64,000 nt of DNA from Polyangiaceae bacterium (GCA_035547195.1 DASZVB010000009.1:2122-66121), one strand, 5' to 3'; shown: positions 11,789 to 48,170, counted from the stretch's first letter. Program-made: numbers and translations. Notes: a model not told the origin generated them from the sequence alone.

Positions 11789-11998
11789 GGGGAACGCGGC
11801 GTCGTGCGGAGCAGGGGAGGCCTACCGCGCGGAGACCTGAGCTAAAGAAGCCAACGCATAAGCTCAACGAGCCACGGCAGCGCTCGCCGTAGTATTCACC
11901 ACACGAAGGGACCGTGTAGGCCAAGCCCGCTCCCGAAATTGCGAGCGTCGCGGAATCCCGTTTCGACGTACAATGAAACCGGGGACGTTGCGGCGCTC

Positions 11999-27374: not shown

Positions 27375-27509
27375 GTCCATCGGATGCCGCGCTCGCGTAA
27401 ACGCGGCGTAGCCGAGCCGGTTCCGTGGACGACCGACTTAATGTCGGCGCTGCGTTGCCGCGCTGGCGGAAGCGCACGAATCGGTTCATGGTTGGCGCGG
27501 GAGGTGGCC

Positions 27510-31813: not shown

Positions 31814-33762
31814 AGATGGACTCGACGACGGCGCCTTCGGTTCTCATCGTGGAAGACGAGCGCATCGTCGCGAAAGATCTGGAGGATACGCTGGCCGAGC
31901 TCGGCTACTCGACGTCGGCGATAGCGTCCTCCGCGGACGAAGCCGTCGCGGAAGCGTCGAAGCGCTGCCCCGACGTCGTCTTGATGGATATCCGGATCAA
32001 GGGCGAGCAGGACGGCGTGGAGACCGCCGAGCTCCTTCGACGAAGGTTCGACGTTCCGGTCGTCTACATGACCGCGCACGCCGACGAGGCCACCCTACAG
32101 CGCGCGAAGAAGACGGAGCCGTACGCCTACCTGGTGAAGCCGGTCAAATCCAACGCGCTGCGGAGCGCCATCGAGATCGCGCTCTACCGACACCGGCTGG
32201 AGAGACGGCTGCGCGAACGGGAGCGTTGGTTTTCCACCATCGTCAGGTCCATCGCCGACGCCATCGTCGCCGTGGATCTGGCGGGGAACATCACGTTGCT
32301 GAACCCCGCGGCGGAGCTCTTGCTCGGCAAGAAACTCGAGGACGTCGCGGGCCTGCCGGCTCGCGAGGTACTTCAGTGGCTTCCAGCGCGAGGAGGCGAC
32401 GGCGATGATCCACCGCTCTACCGAGCTCTCAGAGAGCGAAAGCAGGTCCACCTTGCGGAAGGCACCTTGATCGGCCCGGACAGCACGCCGCGCATCGTCA
32501 GCGACAGCGCCGCGCCGGTGCTGGACGAGGAACATCTGCTCGGCGCAGTGATGGTGTTCCGTGACGTGACGGAGCAGAAACGGCTGCAAAACCAGCTCGA
32601 GCTGTCCGATCGCCTGGCATCGCTCGGGACGATGGCCGCCGGAGTCGCGCACGAGATCAACAATCCCCTCGCGGTGGTGATGGCCAACGCTTCGTTGCTG
32701 CTCGAGGAGCGCGGGGTCTCCCCCGTCCCCCGCGACGCGGCCCACGCCGGCGACGGCGCCGTCGCCGTTCCGCGCGGCGACCAAGAGCTCGAAGCGCTCA
32801 CGGAGATCAGCACCGCCGCCGGACGCATCGCCAACATCGTCCGCGATTTGATGACCTTCGCTCGACCGACGCAGCGAACCGCCGGCAACGCGGACGTGCG
32901 TCGAGCCGTCGCCTGGGCGGTGCGCACGACGTCTCACGAGTTTCGACACCGCGCTCCCGTGCGCGCGGACGTCGGCGACGTGCCGCCGGTGGCGATCGAC
33001 GAAGTCCGGTTGGGTCAGGTGCTCGTCAATTTGCTGGTCAACGCGGCTCAGGCGATCGCGCCGGGAGATGTGGCGAACAACGAGGTCTCCATTCGTGCGC
33101 GCGCCGAAGGCGAAGACCGCGTCGTCATCGAGGTACGCGATTCGGGCGCGGGCATGCCGAAGGAGATCGCGAAACGCGTCTTCGAGCCGTTCTTCACGAC
33201 GAAGCCCGTCGGCGTCGGGACCGGCGTGGGGCTGTCGATCTCCCGGGGGATGGTGCGCTCGGCCGGCGGCGACATCGACGTGGAGAGCGCCGTCGGCCGG
33301 GGGACCACCTTCCGGATTGCCCTGCCTCGCGCGACCTTCGAGAAGCCCGTCGCCGCGGCCGCGGCCGCGCCGGCCGCCGCGCCGCGGCGCGGTCGCATCC
33401 TCGTCGTCGACGACGAGGACATCGTCCTCAGAACCCTTCAGCGAATCCTCGCGGACCACGACGTCGTGTGCGCGAACAGCGTCCGCGCGGCGACGCGCTT
33501 GATCGAACGCGGCGAACGGTTCGATCTCGTCTTATCGGACGTCATGATGCCCGACGCGACAGGGATCGCGCTCTACGAGTGGCTCCTCGCGCGCGATCCC
33601 GACCTCGCCGCGAGGGTCCTGTTCATGACCGGCGGCGCGGTGACGCCCACGGTGGACGCCTTCCTGGGCTCGATCGAAAACCCTCACATCGAGAAACCCT
33701 TCTCCGTCGAACAGCTGCGGAGCGAAGTCCGAAAGTTCCTCGAACGCCTTCAGAAGCCATAG
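31810..33762 (+). CDS. Hybrid histidine kinase with two receivers (REC + PAS + HisKA + HATPase_c + REC)
   Basis: The ATG at 31810 overlaps the previous stop (ATGA). The N-terminal receiver is VLIVEDERIVAKDL...VLMDIRIKG...KP. H-box AAGVAHEINNPLAVV. DSGAGMP and GVGTGVGLS are ATPase motifs. The C-terminal receiver is ILVVDDEDIV...LVLSDVMMPDATG...KP. Confidence 0.9.
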   Translation: MKMDSTTAPSVLIVEDERIVAKDLEDTLAELGYSTSAIASSADEAVAEASKRCPDVVLMDIRIKGEQDGVETAELLRRRFDVPVVYMTAHADEATLQRAKKTEPYAYLVKPVKSNALRSAIEIALYRHRLERRLRERERWFSTIVRSIADAIVAVDLAGNITLLNPAAELLLGKKLEDVAGLPAREVLQWLPARGGDGDDPPLYRALRERKQVHLAEGTLIGPDSTPRIVSDSAAPVLDEEHLLGAVMVFRDVTEQKRLQNQLELSDRLASLGTMAAGVAHEINNPLAVVMANASLLLEERGVSPVPRDAAHAGDGAVAVPRGDQELEALTEISTAAGRIANIVRDLMTFARPTQRTAGNADVRRAVAWAVRTTSHEFRHRAPVRADVGDVPPVAIDEVRLGQVLVNLLVNAAQAIAPGDVANNEVSIRARAEGEDRVVIEVRDSGAGMPKEIAKRVFEPFFTTKPVGVGTGVGLSISRGMVRSAGGDIDVESAVGRGTTFRIALPRATFEKPVAAAAAAPAAAPRRGRILVVDDEDIVLRTLQRILADHDVVCANSVRAATRLIERGERFDLVLSDVMMPDATGIALYEWLLARDPDLAARVLFMTGGAVTPTVDAFLGSIENPHIEKPFSVEQLRSEVRKFLERLQKP

Positions 33763-33769
33763 CTCGCCT

Positions 33770-34837
33770 TCAGAACCGCGCCGCCAGGAACGCGAGCAAT
33801 CGCAGGCGCACGCTGAGGAACGAAAAGTCGGAGTCGGGGATCCGTTCGTTCGTCTGGTCGCCGTCGAGGGTGGGATCGTCGGCGTAGTAGCGCTGTTGCA
33901 AGGTCCCGTTGAACGACCCAACGACCTGCAATTGCGCGTCGAGGCCCGCCAAGAAGTGTAAGCCCGGGAAACCCCCGAGCCCGAACGCCGGTTGTAGCTT
34001 GATGCCCGCGCCCCCACCGAACGCGTCGGCGTGCGCGAGCTTGTTGCGGAGAACGTGATCGTCCTCGTGTGAAGACCACGACGCGATCAACCGCGCCTCG
34101 CCGCTGAACAGGAATGCGTCGCTCTTTCCGAGGTTCAGTCCGACTCCGATGAACGGTTGCCGGTAGCGAACCTCGTAGTGCAGCGCGTGCGGGGACCCCG
34201 GGATCGAGGAATAGACTTTGTCGTCGTTCGAGTCGAGCTGCCACCCCGACGCGCCGTAAGCGTCGTACGTGCTCGATTCGAAACGGAACCCGGCGACGAC
34301 GTGGAGCGCGGTCGTCTTTCCGATGCCGGGCTTTCCGATGCGATAGCGCACAGCGCCCTCGACGTCGAACGTGCGAAGCGTCGTCGGGGAGTTGGTGTGA
34401 CTGAACTCGACTGTCTCCGAATGAGCACCGTCGCTCGCGCTGACGAAATCCTGATCGAGCAGCGTGCCCCAGGGATCGCCGATGTTCGTCAGGAACGTGC
34501 CGCTGAAGCCGAGGGCATCCAGGCCGAAGAAGACGGTGCCGCCTCCGAGCGCGCCGCTGACGGGATAGCTCAGCTTGCTCTCTACGTTAACGTCCAGCGA
34601 AAGCGAATTCGGGACGTCCGCGTGAAACTCGTACGTCTCGCTTCCGGTCTGCACGCCGATCTCCGGAGCGACGGTGAGCATCCACGAGGTCGCGCGAGGG
34701 CTCCACGGCGCGAAGTAGAGGCCCGAAGGCAGCGACGGCGACCCCTCTTCGACTTGAGCGCCGGCCGGAGCCTCCCCAAGGACGACGAGGACCCCACAAA
34801 AACCGAGACCGGTGAGCCAGCGCTCGCAAATACCCAT
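33770..34837 (-). CDS. Omptin-like outer-membrane beta-barrel protease
   Basis: 355 aa with a signal peptide; it ends ...LAFLAARF. By-eye alignment to E. coli OmpT: LLDQDF vs MVDQDW (Asp-x-Asp pair, 34448-34456); AGFRFESSTY vs AGYQESRYSF; YRQPFIGVGL vs FKMPYIGLTG; SWSSHEDDHV vs VESSDNDEHY (Asp-x-His, 34055-34063). Confidence 0.65.
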   Translation of the reverse strand: MGICERWLTGLGFCGVLVVLGEAPAGAQVEEGSPSLPSGLYFAPWSPRATSWMLTVAPEIGVQTGSETYEFHADVPNSLSLDVNVESKLSYPVSGALGGGTVFFGLDALGFSGTFLTNIGDPWGTLLDQDFVSASDGAHSETVEFSHTNSPTTLRTFDVEGAVRYRIGKPGIGKTTALHVVAGFRFESSTYDAYGASGWQLDSNDDKVYSSIPGSPHALHYEVRYRQPFIGVGLNLGKSDAFLFSGEARLIASWSSHEDDHVLRNKLAHADAFGGGAGIKLQPAFGLGGFPGLHFLAGLDAQLQVVGSFNGTLQQRYYADDPTLDGDQTNERIPDSDFSFLSVRLRLLAFLAARF

Positions 34838-34988
34838 ACTGCGTGTCCACGAACATACCTCGAAGCCGGATCCGCGGACGCGCCATTCGTGACCGGCACG
34901 AAGTTCCCTACATCATCCGCGGGCAAGGTCCTGTAAAGCGAGCCCGGCGCCGGCACCACCTCGCGTGGTCTACCTGCCCCGCCTGTCG

Positions 34989-35411
34989 ATGGAGGAGAAT
35001 GCGCCCGTGCCTGAACGCACCCCCGAATCGATCGGCCGCCGCGGCCACGAGACCATCTTGCTCGTCGAAGACGAGATCCTGATCCTCCGCGTCGCCAGCG
35101 CCGCGCTGACCGCGCTCGGATACCGCGTGCTCACCGCGACGAACGCGCTCGACGCCATCGAGCTCGTGAAGAACATGACCGATCCGTTGCACCTCTTGGT
35201 GACCGACGTGATCATGCCCAAGATGGGAGGCCCGGATCTGGCGAAGCATCTCGTCGAGCTGCGCCCGGGGCTCAAGGTCCTGTTCAGCTCCGGCTATACG
35301 GAGAACGCCGTCGTCGATCACGGCGTGCTCGATCAGCGAGTGAACTTCCTTCAAAAGCCGTACACGCCGACGATCCTGGCGCGCCGCGTGCGCGAGGTCC
35401 TCGACGAGTAG
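34989..35411 (+). CDS. Stand-alone response-regulator receiver protein
   Basis: ILLVEDEILILRV...LLVTDVIMPKMGG...FSSGY...FLQKP are canonical REC motifs. The ATG at 34989 is preferred over the GTG at 34965. Confidence 0.85.
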   Translation: MEENAPVPERTPESIGRRGHETILLVEDEILILRVASAALTALGYRVLTATNALDAIELVKNMTDPLHLLVTDVIMPKMGGPDLAKHLVELRPGLKVLFSSGYTENAVVDHGVLDQRVNFLQKPYTPTILARRVREVLDE

Positions 35412-35455: not shown

Positions 35456-38400
35456 TCACACGGTGATGAAGCCGAACGCGTCGAGACCGCGCTCGCCGAT
35501 CACCCGGCCAAGCGCCTCGAAGACGTCCGTGGCGCCGACGAGCGCGAGCCCCGACTCGATCTCCAGGATGAGCCCGCCGACGATCTTACCGTCGGCCGGG
35601 CTCTGTAGAGCCACGAGACGACAACCGGCGGCCGTGGCGGCGGGCGCGAACATCCGCTCCCGACTCCCCGGCGTCGTACGCTGGCTCGCGCCGTCGACCG
35701 CGACGTCCAGCCAGCGGGCGAGCTCTTCGACCGAAGACGCCGGCGGCTCGTCGTTCGTGCTCGACCAGGCGAGGCGCAGCTCGCCCCCTTTCGAGACATA
35801 TAGATAGGCGCTCTTCGCCTTCGTCTTTCGCATCACGAAGTCGACCGCTACTTCGAAGGGCTCGTCGGAGTGGCTCAGGATCTCGTCCACCCGGAGCGGC
35901 CCCTGGCCCGACGAGAACCGGGGTTCGGCGATGGTCGCCGCGTCGGATGAAGCGAACGGCGAGGTCCGGAAGGCCGACACGGTGGCCCCGAACGAGTGAT
36001 GGTGCTCCCGAGCGGCGGACAGCGCCGCGCTGCTGCGGCTCGCGCGCTCGCAGCGAGCGACGAGCAACGGATTTTTCGTCCTGCGAAAGCAGCTCTCCAT
36101 TTCCGCGCGCTGCACCATCGCCGTGACGACGTCCTTTGCGCCCTCGGCGACTTGAGCCCGCGCTTCGTGCAGGAGGCCGACGAGCAGCGCGTTGCTCTGG
36201 CCGCCGTGCTCGGCGAGCAGCTCGTCCAAGAGAGCTGCCGCGCGATCGTGATTTCCGAGCCCGGATTCGGCGAGCGCGAGCTGCCGGCGCGCCTCCAGGA
36301 AACGAACGACGTAGCCGTCGTCTGCCGGGACCATGTTCGCCACGACCTCTTCGGCGATCGCCTTGGCGCGTTCGTACTCGCCGGCGGCGTTGAGCGCCCT
36401 GGCGAAGTACGCGCGGTTCGTCTCCCAACCGACTCGCCGGCGGCAGGGAAAGCTCGGCATCAGCCGCTCGTACAGAGAGATCGCCCCGGCCAGATCCCCG
36501 CGGAGCATCAAGTACGCCGCGCGCGCCGCTTCGGCCTGAGGCTTCAGGACCGCGACTTCCTGAGCGCGGCGCTCGAGCTGGACGTAGCGCCGGCGCGCGC
36601 CGATGGAGTCTCCGGTGAGCACGTCGGCGTTCAAGAGCAGCGCAGGCCAGAACACCTCGGCTTGCCAGGTCTGAGCGCCCTGGACGACGTCCTGCTCGAC
36701 GCGCTCCATGTACGTCTTCACCTCCGCCGACTCCCCGCGGAGCGCGTGATAGAGCATCCGAACCTGGTCGGCCGTGACGGCCCAGGCCTTCACTCCCAGG
36801 CTTTCCATGTGACGCGCCTCTTCGAGTGCTCGGTCGCCGAAGTGATAGCAGTCCAAGAGCCGGAGCATGAAGAGCACGCCGCCGCGAAGCGCGCGCGTGC
36901 GCGCCTCGCCGGCGCCCTCGACGACGGCGGGGTCCTCGAAGCGCGAGAGCGCGCGTTCCCAGACCGCGCGCGACTCGCTCTCGTTGCCGAGGACGTTCGC
37001 CTCGGCCACGGCGAACAGGTACATCGCGTGCGCCACGTGCTCCTCGCCGAAGAACGTGATCGGCGTGATCGCGCGGACGACACGGGCCACGGCGTCGGCG
37101 TCGAAACACGTCGCGTAGACGGCCACGCACGCCGGCACCATGCCGATGGTCGCGGCGAGCGCCGTCCTCGAGTCGTAACCGATGGCGTCCGCGGCGTGCT
37201 CCGCGAAACCCTTCGCACCGAAGGCGAGACCGCGCTTCAACGCTTCTCGACGGCCGAGCTCCGGCGCAAGCTCCGCGGCGCGCGCAAGGCCGGTGATGCG
37301 GATCCCGATCTCGATGGCCCGCTCGCCGTATTCGAGCATGAACTGCCAGTTTCCCGAATAGTACGCGAGCGGCATCAACGGAAAGAGCAGCGCTCCGAGC
37401 TCGTAATCCGACCGACCTTGCTCGTCGTACGCGCGCACCAGCCGGCACAGCGCGCGCACGAGACGGTCCGCGTTGCGATGCGTACCCGCGCCCGCGGCGA
37501 AATCGCGAGCCGCGCCGACGAGTATGCGCGCCCCGAGCTGCTCTTCTCCGGCGTTCACCAGATGAAGCGCGGCCTCGACCCGCTCGACCACGCCGCTCGC
37601 CTCCGATTCGAGCAGGGCTTCCGCCGCGCGTAGCCGGTTCTTCCGGAGCACATCGGGATCGGTCCGCGACAGGACGGCCTCGCGGATGGCGTCGTGACGG
37701 AAGCGGTACCCGTCGCCTTCGCTCACCAGCACCTGCTCGGCGAGCAGCTCGTCGAGAGCCGCGTGGGTGCGTCCTTCGCCGGCGAGCTCGCTCAGCGAAA
37801 GGATGCGCGCGAGCGATACGGCGCCGGAGTGGACCGCCAGGCTCTCCGCCAGCGCGATCGCGTCGGGACCGAGATCCGACAGCCGCGCGGCGAGGATTTC
37901 CTCGGAGCGAGCGGGGAGCTCGTCTTCGGCGACGTCGAGCGGCAAGACCCAGCTGCCGGCCTCGTACTTCGCGATCTTTCGCTTCACCATGAGCTGCGCG
38001 AGCTCGATGAACTGGCGTGGAACTCCGCCGCTGCGCTGCCACAAGAGGCTCCCGACGCGCCCGGCGTTGGCGGCTCCTCCGAAGAGTCCGTTCGAGAGCT
38101 GCTCGCAGGCGTTCGCGTCGAGGCTCGGAAGCTTCAGGCGCTGCGCCTGTTCTCGAAGCATTCGCACCGTCTCCGGCGCGGTCACGCTCGCCCCCGTCCG
38201 CAGCGTCGTGAGCACGAGCAAGCGCGAAGCGCGGCTCCTTTGCCCGAGAGCGAGGAGAAACGACGCCGAGTCGTCGTCGGCCGCGTGGACGTTGTCCACC
38301 CATATGAACATCGCCCGCTCGCGGCTCGCCGCGAGGAACCACTCTCGGAGCGCCGCGTGGGCTCGAACTCGGTCGTCGCCGGCGTCGCTCGGTTGCACGC

Positions 38401-39595
38401 CGGAGGTGGCGCCGCCGAGCGAGTCGGCGAGCTCCGGAGCGAGCTTGCGGAGGACGCCGGCGTGCGGTTCCGCGGCGCGCCGGGCGATCTCCGGGCACGC
38501 CTCGAAGAGCCGGCGCGTGAGCGCGGTCGCCGCGCCGAAGCTCTCGTGCGTGGACTCGGCGTCGGCCCGGAGCGTAACCGCGCCCTTCAAGGTCGCCGTG
38601 AGGCCCAGCTCGTTCGCGAGTCGGGTCTTGCCGATTCCGATGGGCCCCTCGACCAGCACCTCACCGCCCTTGCCTTCCAGCGCTTGCTCGATGCGCCGGA
38701 CCGCCCAATCGATCTGCGCGGCGCGTCCGACCATTGGACTGGACAGAAAATAGCTCTGCTCCGCTCGCTCGTGCGCTTCGGGCGGAAGGTTCCCGATCAC
38801 CGTGAGCTGGTCGATGACCGCCGCGGCCGTCTCCGGGCGTCCGAGCGGATCTTGGCTCAGCATCGAGAGGAGCAGGCGCTCGAGCTCCTCGGGGACGTGC
38901 GGGACGAGCTCGGACGGCGGCACCGGAGGCGTCTGCCAGAGCCCCGGCAGCTCGCTGACGTCCCGCGCCGAAAACGCGGGACGCCCCGTCAGGCAAAAGT
39001 AGCCGACGGCGCCGAGCGAGTAGAGATCCGTCCGCGGATCCAGCGGCCACTGGTGCAAGATCTCCGGCGCCATGAACGCCGGCGTCCCGATGATCTCCGT
39101 GTTCACGCCGAACGACGCCAGGGCCCCGAAGTCGAGCAAGCGCGCGGTGCCGTCGGCGGTGACGCGCACGTTGCGCGGGCTCACGTCGCGGTGCACGAGC
39201 CGTTGTGCGTGCAGCAACGCGAGCGACGACGCCACGTCGCGGAGGTGCCGGCACACGTCCGCGTACGGCAGCTGCTGGAGCTGCACGAGGTCGCTCCCTT
39301 CGAGGAGCTCCATCGTGTAGTAAGGCCCCTCGGCGGTGACGCCGTAGTCGTACACCTCGATGATGCGCGGGTGCTTCAGCCGGACCAGGGTGTGATATTC
39401 GCGCTCGAAGAGCGCCTCCAGAGTCTTTGCGCGCTTGCCGGCCTTGGCCGAGAGCAGCTGCTTGAACGCAACGACTCGCCCGGTCACCTGGTCGCGCGCG
39501 CGATATACGACGCCGACGCCGCCCGCGCCGAGGCGATCGAGCATCGCGTATCGATCGGCCATCAAACGCGAATCGGACGAATCGGCTTCGGTCAT
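35456..39595 (-). CDS. Ser/Thr kinase + AAA_16/STAND-type NTPase + long helical repeat region + GAF-like C-terminus (copy B)
   Basis: The ATG at 39595 is preferred; the track start at 39610 is TTG. Kinase motifs: GAGGVGVVYRA, VAFKQL, HRDVSPRN (39170-39193), DFG, APE. P-loop GPIGIGKT (38624-38647). Walker-B-like FIWVDN (38291-38308). Then >600 aa of helical/TPR-like sequence. The C-terminal ~150 aa (AYLYVSKGGELRLAWSS...GGLILEIE) are GAF-like. Confidence 0.9.
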   Translation of the reverse strand: MTEADSSDSRLMADRYAMLDRLGAGGVGVVYRARDQVTGRVVAFKQLLSAKAGKRAKTLEALFEREYHTLVRLKHPRIIEVYDYGVTAEGPYYTMELLEGSDLVQLQQLPYADVCRHLRDVASSLALLHAQRLVHRDVSPRNVRVTADGTARLLDFGALASFGVNTEIIGTPAFMAPEILHQWPLDPRTDLYSLGAVGYFCLTGRPAFSARDVSELPGLWQTPPVPPSELVPHVPEELERLLLSMLSQDPLGRPETAAAVIDQLTVIGNLPPEAHERAEQSYFLSSPMVGRAAQIDWAVRRIEQALEGKGGEVLVEGPIGIGKTRLANELGLTATLKGAVTLRADAESTHESFGAATALTRRLFEACPEIARRAAEPHAGVLRKLAPELADSLGGATSGVQPSDAGDDRVRAHAALREWFLAASRERAMFIWVDNVHAADDDSASFLLALGQRSRASRLLVLTTLRTGASVTAPETVRMLREQAQRLKLPSLDANACEQLSNGLFGGAANAGRVGSLLWQRSGGVPRQFIELAQLMVKRKIAKYEAGSWVLPLDVAEDELPARSEEILAARLSDLGPDAIALAESLAVHSGAVSLARILSLSELAGEGRTHAALDELLAEQVLVSEGDGYRFRHDAIREAVLSRTDPDVLRKNRLRAAEALLESEASGVVERVEAALHLVNAGEEQLGARILVGAARDFAAGAGTHRNADRLVRALCRLVRAYDEQGRSDYELGALLFPLMPLAYYSGNWQFMLEYGERAIEIGIRITGLARAAELAPELGRREALKRGLAFGAKGFAEHAADAIGYDSRTALAATIGMVPACVAVYATCFDADAVARVVRAITPITFFGEEHVAHAMYLFAVAEANVLGNESESRAVWERALSRFEDPAVVEGAGEARTRALRGGVLFMLRLLDCYHFGDRALEEARHMESLGVKAWAVTADQVRMLYHALRGESAEVKTYMERVEQDVVQGAQTWQAEVFWPALLLNADVLTGDSIGARRRYVQLERRAQEVAVLKPQAEAARAAYLMLRGDLAGAISLYERLMPSFPCRRRVGWETNRAYFARALNAAGEYERAKAIAEEVVANMVPADDGYVVRFLEARRQLALAESGLGNHDRAAALLDELLAEHGGQSNALLVGLLHEARAQVAEGAKDVVTAMVQRAEMESCFRRTKNPLLVARCERASRSSAALSAAREHHHSFGATVSAFRTSPFASSDAATIAEPRFSSGQGPLRVDEILSHSDEPFEVAVDFVMRKTKAKSAYLYVSKGGELRLAWSSTNDEPPASSVEELARWLDVAVDGASQRTTPGSRERMFAPAATAAGCRLVALQSPADGKIVGGLILEIESGLALVGATDVFEALGRVIGERGLDAFGFITV

Positions 39596-39599
39596 CGGC

Positions 39600-42500
39600 T
39601 CAGAACGCAATCGCGTCCCCCGCGGTGAGCAGAACGTCGGCGAGCACGTTCAGAACCGGAGCCTCGACGACGCGCGCGCGCTCGTTCTTGCAGTCCAGCA
39701 CCGCTACTCCCGCGACCACCGGCTCGTCGCCGCGCGAGGTCATCAAGCCGACGAGGGCGAAGCGATGACCGAACAGCGCCGAGGCGCCGTCGGTCGTGGT
39801 CTCGTCCTCCGATCCTCCCCAGAACGAACGCACCCACTTGTCCAGGTACTCTTCCGTCTCGGGGGGCGGCGGCTCGTTCGAGCGCGACGCGGCGAGCAAG
39901 GGGCCGTCGGACTGGTTCACGTACAGGTAGCCCTTCGAAACGCCGGAGTGCTGGAGCATCGTGGCGAGCACGCGCTTCGCCCGTTCGTCGGCGCCCCGGC
40001 AGAGCTCGAGCTCCGTGCGCAACCTGGGATCGAGCTCCGGCGCCCGCGGCCGTATGCGAATGGTCCCGATCGCCGCGTCGACGGGTTCGAACCCCGCCCC
40101 GAGAGAGAGGCGCAGGAGCGACGAGAGCTTCGTCGCGAACGCGACGCTGTCGACCTTCACCGCGAGGTCGCCGACCTTCTTCGCCGCTAGCTCGAACGCC
40201 GCTCCATCCTCGAGCACCTGCGCGACCTGCGCGCGTTCGGCGTAGATTTCCATCAAGAGGATGCCGGCCATCCGCCGTTCGCCGGCGCGAGCTACCACGT
40301 CGTCGGCTCGCCGTACCGCGACGTCGCGCGCGCCGGATCGCGCTTCCGCGATGGCGAGCGCCATCTCGAGCAGGTCCATGTAAGGCGGAAGCTGGGGGTG
40401 CTCCTCGCACTGGGCGAGCGCTTCGCGGCAAAGCGCCTTCGACTCATCGACGCGATCCAGCGAAAGGAGCAGCCGAGCGACGCGATTGACCGCCAGGATC
40501 CAGGCCCCGTGCCGGCCCGGCGAAACGAGCGCGAGCGCCTGTCGACAGAGGTCGAGCCCCTTTTCGAGATCGCCGCGGATCGAGTGGTACGTGCCGGCGA
40601 CGATCAGGGAGTACGGCTTCCAGTCGGGCCAGCGCTCGGCGCGTACCTCCATCTCCGGCATCAGGCGCTTGAGCGCCATCAGGTCGCCGAGGATGACGTA
40701 GGCCACGGATTCCATCACCATTCCGGATTCGATCTGGCGATCCACGTCGGATCGATCGACGCGCGCGAGGTCGCGCCTCCGCCGACACGCCTCGGCCCGC
40801 TTCTCGGCGCCCTGGAAGAGGTGCGCGATCATCTGCACCTGATACGCGAGCGGCGCGTAGGTCGCGCTCTGCGCGAGCGGCTCGATGCGCTCGAACACCA
40901 CGGCCGGCTCGGCGACGGCGTCCTGGGTCCCCTGGTGGAACAGCAACGTCAACCGGAACGCGTTGCGATACACGTCGTCCAGGCCTTCGACCGGCGCGGC
41001 GAGGCGTTCGAGGGCGCGGAGCCGGATCTCGGCGGGCGCCGTGGTGCGGCGGGCCGCCGCCACGCAGGAAACGATGTCGGCTACGACCGCCATCGCCGGC
41101 GACAGCGGCCGCAGCCGATCGATGTTCGGGCCGAGGGCGGCGATGGCGGCCGCGTCGTACGCACAACCGTACGCAGCGCACAGCAGGGTGGTGGAGGTGG
41201 CGAGCTCGCGCGCCGCTTGTCCCGGAGGCAACCCGCGGTCCTCCGGCGGCGTCGCCTCGTGGACCGCGATCGCTCGTCCTATGCAACGCAGGATCCGTTC
41301 GCGCGGATCGGCGACGTCGTGGAAGTCGTCCCAGTACACGAGCCCCGTGTCCTTCTGAAGGCGACCGAGCACCGTCGGCGCGTGGCGGATCAAGCGTGGA
41401 TCGACGCTGGCCCCCAGGCCGAGCAGCGTCCTTCCCACGAGGATCAGCTGGGCCGGAGAGGCGTCGTGCGCGACCGCCCAGTCGAAGAGCTCGTCGAAGA
41501 ACGCAGCGCCGGATTTCGACCGCAAAAAGCTCCAGCCTCGAACCTCGAGCTCGCGCCGGTTCGAGACGAACGCCGCGAACGTCGCGAACGCGCGCCGTGG
41601 ATCGCCGGCCAAGTACTCGTGATACGCCGCGACGGCGGTGGCTGGAGTTCTCCCCGACACGTAGGCGCGCGCGAGGCGATCGTGCAACTCGGAAACGCGC
41701 GCAGCCGGGATCCCGCGCGTCACGGCGCGCCTCAGGGCGTCGTGCGAGAAGCGGTACGTCGCGCCGCGCGCCGTGAGGACCGAGGCCGCGACGAGCTCCC
41801 GGAGGCCGTCGAAGACGCGCGGCGCGTCCGAGCGATCGACGAGCTCGGGGTACTCTTCGACGAACAGCGGCTCCTCCGACATGAGGGCCAGCGCTTGGGC
41901 GAGGGCGCGTCCGATGGGACTCAACGCGGCGACGGATTGATCGAGCGCCTGATCGAGACTGCTCGGCAGATCCAGGCCTTGCAGCGACGCCGGCAATACC
42001 CAACCGCCGTGCTCGTAACGGGCCACGCCTCGATCGACCAGGTGGTGCGCGAGCGAAAGCGCGATACGCGGACTGCCTTCCGCCAGCGAATGGACCCAGC
42101 CGGCGACGTCCTCGACGTGCGGCACGTCGCCGAACACCGACTTCAAGAGCTCGTACGTGTGAGTCGGCCGCAGCGCCCTGAGCAAGTGCGAGCTGCCGAA
42201 TTGCCGGAACCGCTGAACGGCGGATATCGACGAGTCCGGCTCGGCCGTCAACAGGACGAGAAGACGTCGCGTCGGCGCCGCCTCGGAGAGCTTCGCGAGC
42301 ACGGAGAGCGACGCATCGTCGCATTGCTCGACGTCGTCGACGCCGACCGCGAGCGGAACCTCCGACGTGACCTCCATGAGCCACGACGATACCGCCTCGA
42401 CGATCTCCGGCCATTGCTCGCGCGGCGCCGTTTTAGTATCCGCGCCCTCCCCGCCGAGGCGCGCGAGCACGCCGGAAGCACGCTGGCTTCCGTTCGCGAG

Positions 42501-43610
42501 CGCGCCGCTCGTCTCGAGCAAACGGCGGACGAGAGCGCGCACCACGGCGAAGGGACCAGCCCGACCCTGCTCGCCCTCGGCGTAGAGCGCGACCATGCCT
42601 TCGAGCTTCGCTTCCGTCAGGAAGGTCGAGAGCAACCGCGAGCGTCCGTAGCCGCTGCTGCCCTCGACGAGCAAGCTCGAGCCCTCGCGCCGCATCGCGC
42701 GAAGCAAGCGTCTGCGAAAGCGCAGCACGGCGTCGTCTCTTCCGACCAGGGTCGGCGTGACCAGATACGCTTGCGCGATGTCCGGCGCGTCGGCGACCTC
42801 GAGGTCCGCGATGGCCGTGAGGCGATCGAACACCTCCGCGGCGCTGCCGGCGCGCGCGAGCGGATTCAGCGACAGGAGCGAGAGCACGAGCTCGTCGAGC
42901 GCGCGGGGGATCTCCGGAACGTAGCTCGAAGGCGCTTCGAGCCGCAGACTCCACAAGCCGTACAGGTCGGAAAACGACGTCGCGGGAAAGGCGTGTCGCC
43001 CGGTCACGAGCCAATACGAGAGGGCCCCGAGCGAGAACAGATCCGATCGCGCGTCGAGCGGCTGTCCGGCGAGGCTCTCGGGCGAGACGAACGGCGCCGT
43101 GCCGACGACTTCGTGCGCGACGCCCATCGGGCACAGCGCTCCGAAGTCGAGCAGCTTCGCCTTGCCGTCGAGCGTGCGGCGCACGTTCCGCGCGGTGACG
43201 TCACGATGCACGAGACGTCGCGAATGCACCAGCGCGAGCGCGGAGGCGACGTCGCGCAAGAGCGAGCACGCTTCTTTCCAGGCGATCGGCCCGAGCGCCA
43301 CGAGGTCGTCGCCCGAGAGCAGATCCATCGTGTAGTAGGGCAGCTCGCCGTCGACGGCGTAGTCGTGCGCGCGGATGATGAGCGGGTGCGTGAGCTGCGC
43401 GAGCGAAGCGTACTCACGCCGGAAGCGCGACGTCGCGCCGGGTTTGTCGACGACCGACGGCAAGAGCCGCTTCAGCGCCAGTGTGCGCCCCTGCGTGACG
43501 TCGACGACCTCGTACACCGACGCCGTTCCGCCGGAGCCGATCAGACGAACGACGCGATATCGACCAGCAACGTGTTCCCCGACGCACGAGTCGTTCGTCC
43601 GTGAATGCAT
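39600..43610 (-). CDS. Ser/Thr kinase + AAA_16/STAND-type NTPase + long helical repeat region + GAF-like C-terminus (copy A)
   Basis: The ATG at 43610 is preferred; the track start at 43679 is TTG. Kinase motifs: GSGGTASVYEV, LALKRL, HRDVTARN (43185-43208), DFG, SPE. The P-loop is degenerate, GSSGYGRS (42639-42662). Walker B is AVGVDD (42333-42350). Long helical region; the C-terminus (GYLYVNQSDGPLLAASRS...GVAVLDC) is GAF-like. Confidence 0.9.
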   Translation of the reverse strand: MHSRTNDSCVGEHVAGRYRVVRLIGSGGTASVYEVVDVTQGRTLALKRLLPSVVDKPGATSRFRREYASLAQLTHPLIIRAHDYAVDGELPYYTMDLLSGDDLVALGPIAWKEACSLLRDVASALALVHSRRLVHRDVTARNVRRTLDGKAKLLDFGALCPMGVAHEVVGTAPFVSPESLAGQPLDARSDLFSLGALSYWLVTGRHAFPATSFSDLYGLWSLRLEAPSSYVPEIPRALDELVLSLLSLNPLARAGSAAEVFDRLTAIADLEVADAPDIAQAYLVTPTLVGRDDAVLRFRRRLLRAMRREGSSLLVEGSSGYGRSRLLSTFLTEAKLEGMVALYAEGEQGRAGPFAVVRALVRRLLETSGALANGSQRASGVLARLGGEGADTKTAPREQWPEIVEAVSSWLMEVTSEVPLAVGVDDVEQCDDASLSVLAKLSEAAPTRRLLVLLTAEPDSSISAVQRFRQFGSSHLLRALRPTHTYELLKSVFGDVPHVEDVAGWVHSLAEGSPRIALSLAHHLVDRGVARYEHGGWVLPASLQGLDLPSSLDQALDQSVAALSPIGRALAQALALMSEEPLFVEEYPELVDRSDAPRVFDGLRELVAASVLTARGATYRFSHDALRRAVTRGIPAARVSELHDRLARAYVSGRTPATAVAAYHEYLAGDPRRAFATFAAFVSNRRELEVRGWSFLRSKSGAAFFDELFDWAVAHDASPAQLILVGRTLLGLGASVDPRLIRHAPTVLGRLQKDTGLVYWDDFHDVADPRERILRCIGRAIAVHEATPPEDRGLPPGQAARELATSTTLLCAAYGCAYDAAAIAALGPNIDRLRPLSPAMAVVADIVSCVAAARRTTAPAEIRLRALERLAAPVEGLDDVYRNAFRLTLLFHQGTQDAVAEPAVVFERIEPLAQSATYAPLAYQVQMIAHLFQGAEKRAEACRRRRDLARVDRSDVDRQIESGMVMESVAYVILGDLMALKRLMPEMEVRAERWPDWKPYSLIVAGTYHSIRGDLEKGLDLCRQALALVSPGRHGAWILAVNRVARLLLSLDRVDESKALCREALAQCEEHPQLPPYMDLLEMALAIAEARSGARDVAVRRADDVVARAGERRMAGILLMEIYAERAQVAQVLEDGAAFELAAKKVGDLAVKVDSVAFATKLSSLLRLSLGAGFEPVDAAIGTIRIRPRAPELDPRLRTELELCRGADERAKRVLATMLQHSGVSKGYLYVNQSDGPLLAASRSNEPPPPETEEYLDKWVRSFWGGSEDETTTDGASALFGHRFALVGLMTSRGDEPVVAGVAVLDCKNERARVVEAPVLNVLADVLLTAGDAIAF

Positions 43611-44070
43611 GGATTGCGGCGCGCTCGAGAGAGACCTCCGGCAAGAGGCTCGACCGAGTCTCTCTTCGCAACACGGCAAGACGCGCGTGCGCTTAATGTA
43701 AGTATGGCTTTCGCGATAGCGGGCGACTCAGGAGCCGCCGTCACTCTTTCCGCAGGGCCAGTCGTCGGGAACGGGCCTCGTCGGATCCAGCGTGAAATCG
43801 CGCTCGAGCGGGCCCGCATACACATCCGGGTGCAGGTGGTCCCGAGCCGGGGATCGCTCGCCCAAACTACCCGGGAGATGGCCATTCGGTCACCAGGCGC
43901 GGGATGCGCGGAGAGGGCCGATGGCCAGGGCCGAAATGCCACGCGTGCCGCAAACCCTGGCGCGACGTCGCAACCGGTTGGCGGCGCCAACTTTCGCTCG
44001 TCGCGGTTTTGCGCGCTTCCACGAGCTCGTCTGACTAGAAAGACCGTTCACCGACGGCTCGGCACATCAT

Positions 44071-44718
44071 ATGCAACTGAGAGGAGCCGTGATCCATCGC
44101 TCAGAGCTCCTGGAGCACGTGCGCGAAGGCGGCGACTTCGCAGCGGGTCACGCCGAAGCGGCCGTCACGGCGACGCTGGACGCGCTCGGCGCGGCGCTCT
44201 TGCAAAGCGAGAAGCGGACCTTCGCCGAGGCGCTGTCGTCCGATCTGGCGAGCATCGTTCTTTCGGCGCACGCCCCCAAAGCGCCGCTCGATCTCGATGG
44301 GTTTTACCGGCGCGTTCAGCGACACGAAGCGGTACGTCCAGGTCGCGCCCGAGAGCACGCGCAGATCGTCTGTCGAGCGCTCGCGGAGCTCCTTCCGGCA
44401 GAGCGCGTCGCGCTTCTCACGAAGCACGTGCCGTGGCTCGAACCGTTGCTGGAGGTGGATGAAATCGCGCCGTCGCCCCCCGCGCCGGACGTCCTCAGAC
44501 GTCCTTCTCCGACCAACACACTTGCCGTAGGAAAACCCGGAAGCCAAACGCCGTTGTCGGCTGGCGTTCCGGATCGCGCGCAATCGGGATCCATCGCGGC
44601 GTCGAACGATCCGCACGGCGACACGAAGCTCTCGTCCAGCCGAGGCACGACGCAGGAACGCGAGAACGAAACGCTCGCCACGGGTCACCCCGGATCGAAG
44701 CGTCCGCTCTCGGGTTAG
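44071..44718 (+). CDS. DUF2267-like protein
   Basis: 215 aa, ATG start. It has two helical half-repeats of the type ...AEAAVTATLDALGAALLQSEKRTFAEALSSDL... and ...EHAQIVCRALAELLPAERVALLTKHVP.... The tail carries repeated G(K/H)PGSxxPLS. Confidence 0.65.
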   Translation: MQLRGAVIHRSELLEHVREGGDFAAGHAEAAVTATLDALGAALLQSEKRTFAEALSSDLASIVLSAHAPKAPLDLDGFYRRVQRHEAVRPGRAREHAQIVCRALAELLPAERVALLTKHVPWLEPLLEVDEIAPSPPAPDVLRRPSPTNTLAVGKPGSQTPLSAGVPDRAQSGSIAASNDPHGDTKLSSSRGTTQERENETLATGHPGSKRPLSG

Positions 44719-44726
44719 ATTTCCGA

Positions 44727-44888
44727 CTATCCTGCGGCCGCCGCTTGCTCGATCAACCTGCCTGCTCCCGCGATCTTCGCGGTGAGCTCCGGCGACAATC
44801 CGTGCCGTGCGCCGGCGTGCGCCGGATCGTTCGACGACAGCCAGACGGCGCCGTCGGCGTCCTGCCAGGCCAGATCATGAAGACGCCA
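44727..44888 (-). pseudogene. Remnant of a DUF302-family gene (C-terminal ~50 codons only)
   Basis: My translation of the minus strand gives HDLAWQDADGAVWLSSNDPAHAGARHGLSPELTAKIAGAGRLIEQAAAAG-stop. This matches the conserved C-terminal block of two-layer DUF302 proteins (..VWEDxxGKVWLSYNDPxYLxxRHGL..). Upstream, the frame runs into the 3-prime end of the FGGY kinase gene. There is no start codon and no N-terminal domain. Confidence 0.4.
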
Positions 44889-44899
44889 TCGCGCCGGCG

Positions 44900-46570
44900 T
44901 CAGTCGTCCAGTCCGTCGAGCTCCATCATCAGCTTGCGATAGGCAATCTGATCGCCATACATGCGTTGAAAGACGCGGTGCTTGCGGTCGTGGTACGCGC
45001 GTAGCGCCGCGCCGGGCGGCGGGATTTCGACGCCGGGGCCGCTCATCGCCGCCATGGCCGCGATGACGGAGGGGTGATCGCCCGACGCGACGGCGCCGAG
45101 GATCGCCGCGCCGAGCAGGACGGCTTCCGGCTCACGCGGCAGCACCATGCGACAACCGGTGACGTCGGCGTGCTCGCGGACGAAGAGCGGGTTCTTCGTG
45201 TCGCCGCCGCAGGCGACGATGGTCGAGATGTGGAACCCGGCGGCGTTCATGGTGTCGATGATGTGCCGAGTGCCGTGGGCGATGGCCTGGATGGTCGCGA
45301 GATACACGAGCGCGAGCGCTTCCACGCTGTCGGTCATCTTCAGACCGGAGATCATGCCGCGCAGGGTGGGATCGGCGCGCGGGCTGCGATTGCCGTGGAA
45401 GTACGGCAAGACGTGGATCTGCTCCGTCAGCGCCGCGGGGAATGGGCGCGTCTCGGCGAGCCGATCGAGGACGGAGTTGAGCACGCCGTGCACGGTGGTG
45501 CCTTCGCGGCGCGCCGTCGCGCGCAGCTCCGCGCCGCGCGCGTGGATGTCGATGACGTGCTCGATGAGCGCGCCAGTGGCGGATTGACCGCCCTCGGTGA
45601 GCCAGAGACCCGGGATCATCGCCGAGTAGTACGGCCCCCAGATCCCCGGAGGGAACTTCGGGTCGCGGCTGACGGCCATGTGACAACTCGACGTGCCGCC
45701 GATGAGCGCGAGTCGCGACTCGAGCTCCGTCTCGGTCAGCGTAGCGCCCGCCGTCGTGACGCCGAGGAGCCCGAGGCCGCCGGCGTGCGCGTCGATGATC
45801 GAGACACCGACGCAAGTGGCCGGCGACAAGCCGAGCTCCGCCGCCGCGCGCGGCGAAAGCGTCCCGAGCCGCTCGCCCATCGGACGGATCTTCGTGCCGA
45901 TGCGGACGTAGCCTTCGTCGACGAGATCGCCGAGCCCTATCGCGCGGAAGTAGTCGTCCCGCCAGCCGTCGACGCCTCCCGCGGACTTCTCACCGAGGTA
46001 GGTCCACTTGCAGGTCGTCGAGCAGAGCGAGCGCACGTCGCTGCCCGTCGCGCGATACGTCAGGAAATCCGGCAGATCCAGGAAACGCCGTGCGCTCTTC
46101 CAGGACTCGGGCAAATGTTCCTTGAGCCACGCGAGCTTCGGCGTCTCCATTTCCGGCGAGATGGTGCCGCCGACGTACCTCAGCACTTCGTGCCCGCGAT
46201 CGCTGATGCGCTGAGCGTACGCGATGGCGCGGTGATCCATCCACATGACGACGTTCTGCTCGGGCGCGCCGGTGACGCTGACGGTGACCGGCGCGTCGCC
46301 GTCGCCCAGAACGACCAGCGAGCAGGTCGCGTCGAACCCGATCCCGGCGATCGCCTGCGCGTCCCCGCCCCACTCGGCGAGCGCGGCACGTGTCGCGTGC
46401 GCTGCGGCTTGCCAGATATCCTCGGACGACTGCTCGACGTGATCTTCCTGCGGGCGGAAGATCGACAGAGGGTGCGCGCCCATGCCGACGCGAACGCCCC
46501 CGGCGTCGAAGATCGCCGCGCGAGCGCTGGCCGTGCCGACGTCGATGCCGAGGTAGTAGCGTTCAGCCAT
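44900..46570 (-). CDS. FGGY-family carbohydrate (pentulose/ribulose-type) kinase
   Basis: 556 aa. [18 protein letters not shown] is the N-terminal phosphate-1 motif. GGTSSCHM and [11 protein letters not shown] are FGGY C-domain motifs. Confidence 0.9.
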
Positions 46571-46579
46571 CGCTCGACG

Positions 46580-48100
46580 TCACCCGCGCCTTTCGAGAAT
46601 CCTTACGCGAAAGCCGAGCTCCTGGGAGAGCGCGACCATCTCGTCGAAGATGTCCCCGTACGCGACCGCGACGTGATTCGAGAGATAGTGCGCCATCAAC
46701 GTGTCACGACCGATCCCCAGATCCGCCGCCATGAACGGCCACTGACGCGTCGTCCCTTCCCACCAGGCGTCGCGCGTCGCCTCGGGCAACTTCACGACCT
46801 CGCCTCTACCGACGTCCATCCAGAGCACGTCTTCTTTGATGTACGCGCGTGCCCACGTGATGTTCCCGGGGAGGCTCTCGCCGGCGAACGTCCCGCCCGC
46901 GATCGGGAAATACAATGACGGCTGGCGGTAGCTGTGAACGCCCTTCAGCGTCGCGGGATCGTGGGTCATCGCGTACGCGCCGCACGATCCGGAGTTGAGC
47001 AGCACCCACAAGAAGCGCCCCTCGTGCTCCGCGCCCCAGCGCACGTCGTGGAACATCACGGCCTCGTGCAGGCCCTTCGCCGCGAGCAGGCGCTTCATCA
47101 TTTCCATGGGCAGAGCGTTGCCCTGGTCGGCCTCCGTCGCGGTGGCGATGGGAGCACCGTTACTCTCCGGACGGCAGGCGGAGTTGAAGAGGCCTTCGGC
47201 GAAGTCGCTCGGTGGACGCAGCGGAATGAGGCCGAGCTGGTACTGCCACCCGAGGCAATCCGCCTTGTACTCGGCGATGAGATCCAGCACGACGAGGTAG
47301 TCGCGCAGCTGTTCGCGCGTCGACTCTTCGGTGAAGTCCTCGGCCCCGGCTTCCTTCCAGTGGAACGTGACTCCCCTGTCGCGAACGAAGCGGAAAGCGT
47401 CGTCGATGCGCGCTTTTTCGATGCGACGCCCGCGATCGATGATCCACGCCTGGTCGACTTTGTGCTCGGCGAAGCCGTAGCGGCCGAGGAGGCGCGGGCC
47501 GAAGTAGCCGTTGATCATGCCCATGGAGGTGTCGCCGAGCATGAGCAACAGGGCGCGTCGATCGCGGAAGCTCTGCGCGACGCGGCGAGCTCGCGCCGCG
47601 GCGTCCGTGGAGATCGGCGCGTGATGAGCGATGTCGTCCTCGGCGTACGCGATGCGCCCGCTGGCGCACCACTCGTCGAGGTGAGCCATGAACGCCTCGT
47701 CGTCCGTGAACGTCGGTTGGTCGGTCCAGATCCTGGAAAAAGGGCGATTGAGGCTCTCGAGGCACGCGCCGGTGTTCAAGAGGCCGACGAGACCAGGCCA
47801 CTGGCCGGAAAAATTGCTCGCGAGTAGCAGCGGATTGTCCTTCCCCACGACTCCCTCCGTCGTGTGCGGCCCGTAAAGCCAGTGCACGCACACGCCCACG
47901 AGCGGATCGTCGATGGGCCCGAGGCGCTCGATGGCCTCGTGGGGTTTCGTGAGGAACCCTGGGACGCGATAGGTGGTGCGGCCCAGCCGCGCGAACGCGC
48001 GCTCGAGCTGGCGCGTCGCCTCTTCCACGTTGGATTCTGCCAGCTCGTTCGGTTTCGATCTGGCATCACCGGGCCAGAAGAGAGCGACTCTCGATGACAT
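46580..48100 (-). CDS. L-fucose/L-arabinose isomerase-family sugar isomerase
   Basis: The ATG at 48100 (MSSRVALFWPGDARSK...) lies within track ORF 46580..48304. It is 9 nt upstream of the kinase start. The overall pattern (VCVHWLYGPH..., NFSGQWPGLVGLLNTGA) is like COG2407 isomerases. Family assignment is moderate. Confidence 0.75.
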   Translation of the reverse strand: MSSRVALFWPGDARSKPNELAESNVEEATRQLERAFARLGRTTYRVPGFLTKPHEAIERLGPIDDPLVGVCVHWLYGPHTTEGVVGKDNPLLLASNFSGQWPGLVGLLNTGACLESLNRPFSRIWTDQPTFTDDEAFMAHLDEWCASGRIAYAEDDIAHHAPISTDAAARARRVAQSFRDRRALLLMLGDTSMGMINGYFGPRLLGRYGFAEHKVDQAWIIDRGRRIEKARIDDAFRFVRDRGVTFHWKEAGAEDFTEESTREQLRDYLVVLDLIAEYKADCLGWQYQLGLIPLRPPSDFAEGLFNSACRPESNGAPIATATEADQGNALPMEMMKRLLAAKGLHEAVMFHDVRWGAEHEGRFLWVLLNSGSCGAYAMTHDPATLKGVHSYRQPSLYFPIAGGTFAGESLPGNITWARAYIKEDVLWMDVGRGEVVKLPEATRDAWWEGTTRQWPFMAADLGIGRDTLMAHYLSNHVAVAYGDIFDEMVALSQELGFRVRILERRG

Positions 48101-48170
48101 GGCTGCCCTTTCTCGGTCGAGAGAAGTATTGTACACGCGCTTCGTAAGGGGCAATGCCAACAGGAACTCG

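Follow-up and report, generated by a model that had tools for sequence, protein, structure and literature searches.

Two adjacent genes encoding collinear multidomain proteins

Analysis of a 64,000-nucleotide stretch of DNA from a soil myxobacterium (Polyangiaceae bacterium, GCA_035547195.1, DASZVB010000009.1:2122-66121; the whole stretch is called the window below) revealed two long neighbouring open reading frames (ORFs) on the minus strand, gene A and gene B. Both genes encode proteins with a Hanks-type protein kinase domain, a STAND-type NTPase module, a long helical region and a GAF-like end. The original prediction, made from the sequence of the window alone, had singled out this pair as its top candidate for an undescribed system. 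The analysis presented here instead assigned A and B to the STAND-regulated Hanks kinases, a known kind of which they are an ordinary instance; within it they fall into a subfamily of the Polyangia that is very large and uncharacterised. The genes and the regions next to them are located as follows.

39600-43610, minus strand: gene A, 1336 amino acids (aa), ATG at 43610 and TGA at 39602-39600; kinase, STAND nucleotide-binding oligomerisation domain (NOD), helical region and GAF-like domain; NTPase site of the "R + DD" type
35456-39595, minus strand: gene B, 1379 aa from the ATG; architecture as in A; NTPase site of the "K + DN" type
39596-39599, minus strand: spacer of 4 nt (gccg) between the stop codon of A and the ATG of B
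43611-44070, no strand assigned: intergenic region between A and a divergent DUF2267 gene, presumed to hold the promoter of the A-B unit

The G+C content at third codon positions (GC3) is 0.86-0.87 for A and B, which is the strongest coding signal within the window. The product of gene B is identical to the NCBI protein P0001, annotated as "protein kinase [Polyangiaceae bacterium]", which is encoded on a contig of 125.8 kb in a Polyangiaceae metagenome-assembled genome. In the public annotation (P0121, 1305 aa), the start of gene A is set 31 codons after the ATG at 43610 (43518-43610), with loss of the Gly-rich loop; the ATG at 43610 retains the entire Pkinase match, which begins at residue 18. 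The junction of the two genes reads ...TTC TGA gccg ATG ACC..., and an alternative TTG start at 39610 would give gene B an 11-nt overlap with gene A. The same-strand tandem arrangement described in the original prediction, including both the 4-nt gap and the 11-nt overlap, agrees with these coordinates. The frame of gene B is +1 relative to gene A, which rules out a single A-B polypeptide produced by in-frame readthrough. Because the spacer measures only 4 nt, A and B are very probably co-transcribed and hence co-expressed, so that mixed oligomers could form; we further infer translational coupling of the two genes. A scan for promoter and terminator consensus sequences yielded nothing above the shuffled expectation and no sigma-70-like consensus 5' of gene A, which says little for a myxobacterium.

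Comparison of the two proteins by BLASTP gave one full-length collinear alignment with 30% identity and an E value of 7e-115. In both proteins, residue 135 is the first of the catalytic loop (HRDVTARN in A, HRDVSPRN in B) and residue 317 the first of the P-loop (GSSGYGRS in A, GPIGIGKT in B), in agreement with the collinear paralogues described in the original prediction. Neither a signal peptide nor a convincing membrane segment was found in A or B. Membrane anchoring was considered and rejected: the hydropathy maxima over 19 residues (1.68 and 1.84) are borderline and lie inside the Ala-rich helical region. A search of the window with the family profile detected no third family member.

A complete kinase core with a lysine-less catalytic loop

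The kinase domains and their motifs are positioned as follows.

42846-43559, minus strand: Hanks-type protein kinase domain of A, residues 18-255, Pfam Pkinase 107.8 bits
43185-43208, minus strand: catalytic loop HRDVTARN of A
43140-43148, minus strand: DFG motif of A
38819-39550, minus strand: Hanks-type protein kinase domain of B, residues 16-259, Pfam Pkinase 124.3 bits
39170-39193, minus strand: catalytic loop HRDVSPRN of B
39125-39133, minus strand: DFG motif of B

Both domains score above the curated cut-off of the Pfam Pkinase model (PF00069, 31.7 bits). The kinase core is complete in A and B and includes the Gly-rich loop, the beta3 Lys, the alphaC Glu, the HRD Asp, the catalytic-loop Asn and the DFG motif. 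In an alignment of 14 diverse family members, K45, E66, H135, R136, D137, N142, D155, F156 and G157 are invariant. The Lys that forms the Ser/Thr-kinase signature HRDLKxxN is missing from the catalytic loop of A, of B and of the family as a whole. The family consensus is HRD[VLI][ST]xxN, in which an Arg mostly occupies the site of the Arg of the Tyr-kinase loop HRDLAARN, and the P+1 loop of A and B is of the Ser/Thr type ("GT"). Unrelated kinases encoded at the same loci carry the normal catalytic-loop Lys. A literature search for loops of the HRDLAARN type in bacteria returned nothing relevant. From the sequence we infer that A and B are active kinases.

In the downstream partner of one tandem pair from another genome (L005:14345-18433), HAD replaces HRD. 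This protein is a possible pseudokinase within the family.

A MalT-like STAND module with two covarying types of nucleotide site

The central modules and their nucleotide-binding motifs are positioned as follows.

41511-42752, minus strand: STAND NOD of A, residues ~287-700, Pfam AAA_16 47.9 bits, family NOD profile E 1.5e-158
42639-42662, minus strand: Walker A motif GSSGYGRS of A (Lys replaced by Arg)
42309-42350, minus strand: Walker B strand and AAA_16 "D..S" motif of A, AVGVDDVEQCDDAS
37445-38734, minus strand: STAND NOD of B, residues ~288-717, Pfam AAA_16 57.7 bits, analysed with AlphaFold2 and Foldseek
38624-38647, minus strand: Walker A motif GPIGIGKT of B
38267-38308, minus strand: Walker B motif of B, FIWVDNVHAADDDS (D434, N435)

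The AAA_16 matches of both proteins exceed the Pfam cut-off of 32.6 bits and are placed at residues ~288-460. Searching PDB sequences with the NOD profile gave marginal matches only (Apaf-1, E 0.005), and the fold was therefore examined with AlphaFold2 and Foldseek. Residues ~287-716 of B were modelled with a predicted local distance difference test (pLDDT) score of 85.8 from an input alignment of 12 sequences. The best PDB matches of this model were the STAND protein PH0952 (6mfv, E 2.7e-10), MalT (8bob_C, E 1.1e-8) and Avs3 (8dgc); further matches comprised ORC/Cdc6 and plant and animal NLRs. Judged by these best matches of the model, the central module is a predicted MalT-like STAND NOD composed of a nucleotide-binding domain (NBD), a helical domain (HD) and a winged-helix domain (WHD). 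The P-loop NTPase fold proposed earlier for the central region was thus recovered in the form of a STAND module.

Neither protein combines the canonical Walker A motif GxxxxGK[ST] with the canonical Walker B motif hhhhDD: A has GSSGYGRS with VDD, and B has GPIGIGKT with VDN. The same holds for most of the family. Among 367 profile-aligned family NODs, the combinations were R+DD (128), K+DN (118), R+DN (34) and K+DD (20), so that the textbook combination is the rarest. Across the family, the Walker A residue varies together with the Walker B residues: Lys is found with D-N and Arg with D-D. A rough tree built by the unweighted pair group method with arithmetic mean (UPGMA) requires at least 21-23 changes for each of the two characters. 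Counting clusters at 50% distance leaves the association in place (R/DD 35, K/DN 25, K/DD 9, R/DN 8). Because 85 of the 86 recognisable P-loops in the A clade carry the Walker A Arg, this residue is a maintained state in the clade and not a sign of decay. The non-canonical Walker residues make a normal ATP-hydrolysis cycle in the family doubtful.

Helical region and C-terminal GAF-like domain

The C-terminal halves of the two proteins comprise the following parts.

40161-41510, minus strand: long helical region of A, presumed sensor or arm, with weak TPR matches, collinear with the helical region of B
36041-37444, minus strand: long helical region of B, presumed sensor or arm, with one TPR_14 match at residues 1101-1137
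39603-39995, minus strand: C-terminal GAF-like alpha/beta domain of A, residues ~1206-1336, aligned with the modelled domain of B and covered by a family-specific profile
35468-35896, minus strand: C-terminal GAF-like domain of B, residues ~1234-1376, analysed with AlphaFold2 and Foldseek

The helical part spans about 450 aa in A and B. In A, the TPR_MalT, TPR_12 and TPR_10 matches are weak (E 0.0065-0.08, with TPR_MalT at E 0.0065) and remain below the cut-offs; in B, the TPR_14 match (25.5 bits) lies just above its cut-off of 23.5 bits. The helical region is ~62-80% identical among the orthologues of B, which equals the conservation of the NOD and fits the expectation for a fixed ligand. Hypervariability of the kind found in the sensors of immune receptors was looked for in this region and was not seen.

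No Pfam model exceeded its threshold over the last ~200 residues of A or B. The last 220 residues of B were modelled with AlphaFold2, which revealed a domain of the topology a-b-b-a-b-b-b-a with a pLDDT of ~90 over residues 1234-1376; it is preceded by a poorly conserved linker of low model confidence (residues ~1186-1233). The best PDB matches of this model were almost all GAF domains (phytochromes, a sigma-54 activator, PDE5A, CodY), at E ~1e-3, with a template modelling (TM) score to the target of ~0.5 and a high root mean square deviation; Roadblock/MglB proteins matched equally well by TM score. The Pfam model GAF_3 matched B below threshold (E 0.044, 14.6 bits against a cut-off of 27) and gave sub-threshold matches in 9 of 28 family members, the best with E 0.0012. 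"GAF-like" is a fair label for the modelled domain, with membership of a Pfam GAF family not established. Among the orthologues of A, the GAF-like domain is 79-88% identical.

The domain order given in the original prediction stands for the kinase and AAA_16 domains, which are above the cut-offs, for the STAND fold and for the helical region. The GAF-like end was recovered from the structural model, with the GAF profile itself below threshold, and the TPR assignment is weak.

A and B belong to a large family of the Polyangia

The two family searches at E<=1e-10 returned 3039 and 2388 matches. Full-length relatives, ~1300-1450 aa long, number in the thousands for each protein, and the organism names supplied by the sources are all Polyangiaceae or Polyangiales except for one metagenome-assembled genome (MAG) labelled "Proteobacteria bacterium". 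Species genomes (one genome per species) were scanned with a profile built from the full-length alignment, and details were taken from the best 80 of at least 466 relatives. All of these at least 466 relatives are in Myxococcota-type MAGs, and several MAGs hold four to eight or more family loci among the best 80 alone. The remark in the original prediction that proteins of the kinase-AAA_16-TPR type are abundant in Myxococcota and have no assigned mechanism holds for this family. A profile of the C-terminal domain collected 1528 clusters at 50% identity, with the domain invariably at the C-terminus; the full-length matches are ~1350-1420 aa long and the short ones resemble pieces of truncated genes. 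A metagenome scan with protein B added only L091, a close orthologue without a partner, together with 43 loci that are distant or fragmentary and in no case include a second unit. On this sequence evidence, the family that includes A and B appears to be a very large, uncharacterised expansion restricted to the Polyangia within the Myxococcota.

Each of three proteins of 2778-2833 aa (P0246, P0270 and P0283) is made up of two full kinase-NOD-helical-GAF-like units. The three are mutually collinear across the unit junction, with 44-48% identity, and thus form a clade in which the fusion of the units is ancient and has been maintained. Such a fusion shows that a single polypeptide can hold two functioning units. 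It is Rosetta-stone-type support for the cooperation of units in general and not for that of A with B.

The adjacency of A and B is lineage specific

The neighbourhoods of 10 orthologues of B (at least 62% identity, including the window) and four close orthologues of A (at least 77% identity, including the window) were compared. A tandem upstream partner is absent in 6 of the 10 orthologues of B (P0005, P0006, P0007, P0010/L003, L004 and L091). The other four have a family unit upstream or fused: the window itself, P0003, P0009, whose upstream gene is incomplete and of unassigned type, and P0002, in which the units are fused. The close orthologues of A are paired in two of four cases, and P0124 and P0125 have no B gene downstream. 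The individual cases outside the window, with two less similar relatives of A, are as follows.

P0003, 76% identical to B: located directly after the A-orthologue P0123 with the same 4-nt spacing, on a contig that shares the sugar-gene and PAS-kinase synteny of the window
P0009, 67% identical to B: an incomplete gene, interrupted by the contig end, is located 62 nt upstream, family type not assigned
P0002, 67% identical to B: ORF of 2395 aa in which a family unit is fused to the B-orthologue, both without the end domain
P0005, 73% identical to B: no tandem partner
P0006, 70% identical to B: no tandem partner
P0007, 69% identical to B: no tandem partner
P0010/L003, 66% identical to B: no tandem partner; the opposite strand carries an R-type member at a distance of 2.5 kb
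L004, 64% identical to B: no tandem partner
L091 (P0004-like), 73% identical to B: no tandem partner
P0124, 78% identical to A: no B gene downstream; its MAG has a B-orthologue on a different contig
P0125, 77% identical to A: no B gene downstream, although the upstream FGGY gene is kept
P0127, 59% identical to A: solitary
P0130, 56% identical to A: in a loose cluster of three family members

The A-B pair with its 4-nt junction therefore recurs in only one closely related syntenic contig (P0123/P0003). Direct same-strand tandems were found at 5 of 79 family loci, with varying spacing and order of the site types, and a second unit was found at none of 49 further loci, which places direct tandems at ~4% of loci family-wide. 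Thirty loci have at least 4.5 kb of sequence on either side and no partner. These results show that the adjacency of A and B is a lineage-specific juxtaposition in a normally solitary family and not a conserved two-gene system. The original prediction had listed a lack of conservation of A and B as neighbours among the findings that would speak against it, and this is largely what the orthologues show. The fused ORF P0002, located on a 94.8-kb JGI contig, may be a frameshifted or decaying tandem pair.

Comparison with known systems

The closest studied analogue of A and B, judged by architecture, appears to be the kinase PknK from Mycobacterium tuberculosis. This soluble kinase carries a STAND domain at the C-terminus; its input signal is unknown, and VirS is a substrate (PMC4601284). 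It has been grouped with MalT among the STAND proteins, and MalT is activated by inducer-dependent multimerisation (PMC4381067). By description, PknK resembles A and B in that a MalT-type STAND module and helical repeats, which are putative in A and B, come after an N-terminal Hanks kinase, and in being soluble (PMC4601284, PMC4381067). In contrast to PknK, A and B have a GAF-like end, the Lys-less loop HRD[VLI][ST]xxN and non-canonical combinations at the NTPase site, and they belong to a multi-copy expansion, whereas PknK is a single gene. A and B are presumably about 250 aa longer than PknK. No NCBIfam model named for PknK is among the matches of A and B.

MalT and PH0952, the best structural matches of the B module, share with A and B the order NBD-HD-WHD followed by a helical sensor, which is presumed in A and B. 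A and B differ from them by a kinase output in place of a DNA-binding domain, by marginal sequence similarity and by deviating Walker residues. An atlas of bacterial Ser/Thr kinases lists a Myxococcota-specific family with C-terminal TPR (Myxo1) and a PknK family with several linked domains, and assigns functions to neither (bioRxiv 10.1101/2025.01.12.632604). AAA/STAND modules, GAF modules and the catalytic-loop variant do not figure in the text of this preprint. A search for literature on combined Pkinase and AAA_16 domains retrieved only a preprint on fungal NLRs. Kinases regulated by a STAND module are a recognised and barely studied route for coupling ligand sensing to protein phosphorylation in bacteria, PknK being the only studied example that was found.

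Proposed mechanism and alternative explanations

A and B are probably deeply diverged paralogues among Polyangia-restricted soluble signalling kinases that are built on a MalT-like STAND switch, placed side by side in one lineage and not part of a conserved two-component machine. A mechanism is proposed by analogy with MalT, other STAND proteins and M. tuberculosis PknK. A cytoplasmic ligand would bind the C-terminal helical and GAF-like part, and its binding would open a closed, autoinhibited NOD. Nucleotide-dependent oligomerisation would then cluster the kinase domains, and the clustered domains may trans-autophosphorylate and phosphorylate downstream targets. Several points weigh against this interpretation. 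Because the catalytic loop is without the Lys of HRDLKxxN, the predicted kinase activity and residue specificity of A and B are unproven. Neither protein has a fully canonical NTPase site, and the textbook K + DD occurs in ~20 of ~300 members. Finally, the 4-nt junction is kept in the syntenic P0123/P0003 pair, and other tandems and the fused double-unit clade exist; these cases leave room for a functional pairing that may operate in some lineages.

Paired plant NLRs such as RGA4/RGA5 are encoded head-to-head and are genetically linked across accessions. They resemble A and B in being STAND paralogues that lie side by side, with a non-canonical P-loop in one of the two. A comparable sensor/helper hetero-oligomer would place A (Walker A Arg) and B (Walker A Lys) in a mixed STAND platform in which one protein senses and the other drives activation. 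The co-expression implied by the 4-nt spacer, the identical junction in P0123/P0003 and the unlike site types of A (R+DD) and B (K+DN) are consistent with this model, as are the fused pair P0002 and the collinear double units of P0246, P0270 and P0283. A DN unit accompanies a DD unit in five of the six direct tandems (window counted), a proportion that is not significant. We nevertheless regard the model as unlikely, because the partner is missing in 6 of 10 orthologues of B and 2 of 4 close orthologues of A, because one MAG carries the A- and B-orthologues on separate contigs, and because R-type proteins are commonly solitary and other tandems differ in gene order and spacing. A and B also differ from the plant pairs in being arranged head-to-tail and in having lost the linkage in most orthologues. 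STAND proteins bind the nucleotide within one protomer, so that there is no obvious trans complementation between the site types of A and B, which counts against the model as well. The sensor/helper role suggested in the original prediction had been founded on conserved pairing and loses this footing. A quite improbable extension is that the K + D-N and R + D-D sites are two alternative, repeatedly interconverted types without a normal ATPase cycle, and that unlike units in tandem or fused form (the 2.8-kilo-amino-acid clade) act as asymmetric heterodimeric switches, one sensing and the other activating. If this were true, A and B would represent a sensor/helper pair of bacterial STAND proteins whose output is a kinase, possibly of unusual residue specificity in view of the Arg that makes the catalytic loop resemble that of Tyr kinases. 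The converse explanation, in which gene A is a decaying duplicate, a pseudo-NTPase without a function of its own that persists beside B, could draw on the Walker A change from Lys to Arg, on the apparent truncation of the fused P0002 pair at both C-terminal domains and on the tandem partner L005 with HAD for HRD. It is extremely improbable in view of the intact ORF with a GC3 of 0.86, the Arg kept in nearly all A-clade P-loops, the retention of all kinase catalytic residues and the occurrence of solitary A-clade proteins in other genomes; moreover, the orthologues of A are 77-82% identical to it and conserve every domain, including the GAF-like one.

The original prediction had also considered a defence-like role. 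An anti-phage or conflict system of the Avs or bNACHT type, in which the sensor recognises an invader and the oligomerised kinase shuts the cell down, would have the tripartite layout of effector, STAND NTPase and C-terminal sensor that A and B share with these proteins, and Avs3 is among the top structural matches of the B module. Kinase domains are listed among the fusions to bacterial NACHT proteins (bioRxiv 10.1101/2022.07.19.500537), the family is large, lineage specific and multi-copy in a lineage of multicellular type, and its orthologues differ in genomic context. This explanation is very improbable. The PADLOC matches (PD-T4-6, mad6, MkoA, PglW, Stk2) essentially cover the kinase domain only, the longest reaching residue ~390 at the start of the NTPase region, and the NCBIfam matches to MADS6, PglW and TOMM are far under the equivalog cut-offs. 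These are generic kinase matches, and membership of A and B in the corresponding defence systems was rejected. Analysis of 12 neighbourhoods revealed genes for metabolism, transport and regulation; integrases, transposases and known defence genes were absent from those inspected, and no relatives were found in IMG/VR viral contigs. A and B differ from Avs and bNACHT proteins in all these respects (defence context, specific model match, viral relatives), in a sensor region that is conserved as well as the NOD, and in having a kinase as effector in place of a nuclease, protease or other cell-killing enzyme. Their closest structural relatives are regulatory MalT-like STAND proteins. A defence role for A and B thus has no support.

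For the window the result is mainly negative, and the A-B tandem is not to be regarded as a new two-gene or defence system. The positive result concerns the family, an expansion in the Polyangia that comprises at least 1500 clusters at 50% identity and is marked by a family-specific GAF-like end not captured by Pfam. Its members are normally solitary, and hardly any of them combines the textbook Walker A and Walker B motifs, which makes the family a reasonable place to study STAND switching without canonical hydrolysis residues and the expansion of the myxobacterial kinome. Of particular interest are the two covarying types of NTPase site, the missing Lys of the catalytic loop, the fusion of double units and the GAF-like domain.

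Genes surrounding A and B

The remaining genes considered in the window are listed below.

11846-13450, plus strand: another Hanks-type kinase, unrelated to the A/B family, 31% identical to the kinase domain of B
27384-29870, plus strand: large DUF3160 protein
~29891-31813, plus strand: PAS-HisKA_2 kinase of a two-component cluster adjoining gene B
31810-33762, plus strand: receiver-PAS-HisKA hybrid kinase of the same two-component cluster
33770-34837, minus strand: orphan ORF of 355 aa with no Pfam match
34893-35411, plus strand: receiver-only response regulator, convergent with B
44071-44718, plus strand: DUF2267 gene, divergent from gene A
44900-46570, minus strand: FGGY kinase of a sugar-catabolic set
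46580-48304, minus strand: protein with a fucose-isomerase C-terminal domain, same set
47973-49163, plus strand: periplasmic sugar-binding protein, same set

The synteny of the DUF2267 and sugar genes (44071-49163) is common to the contig of P0003 and in part to that of P0125. PAS-kinase genes are also located near the syntenic pair P0123/P0003.

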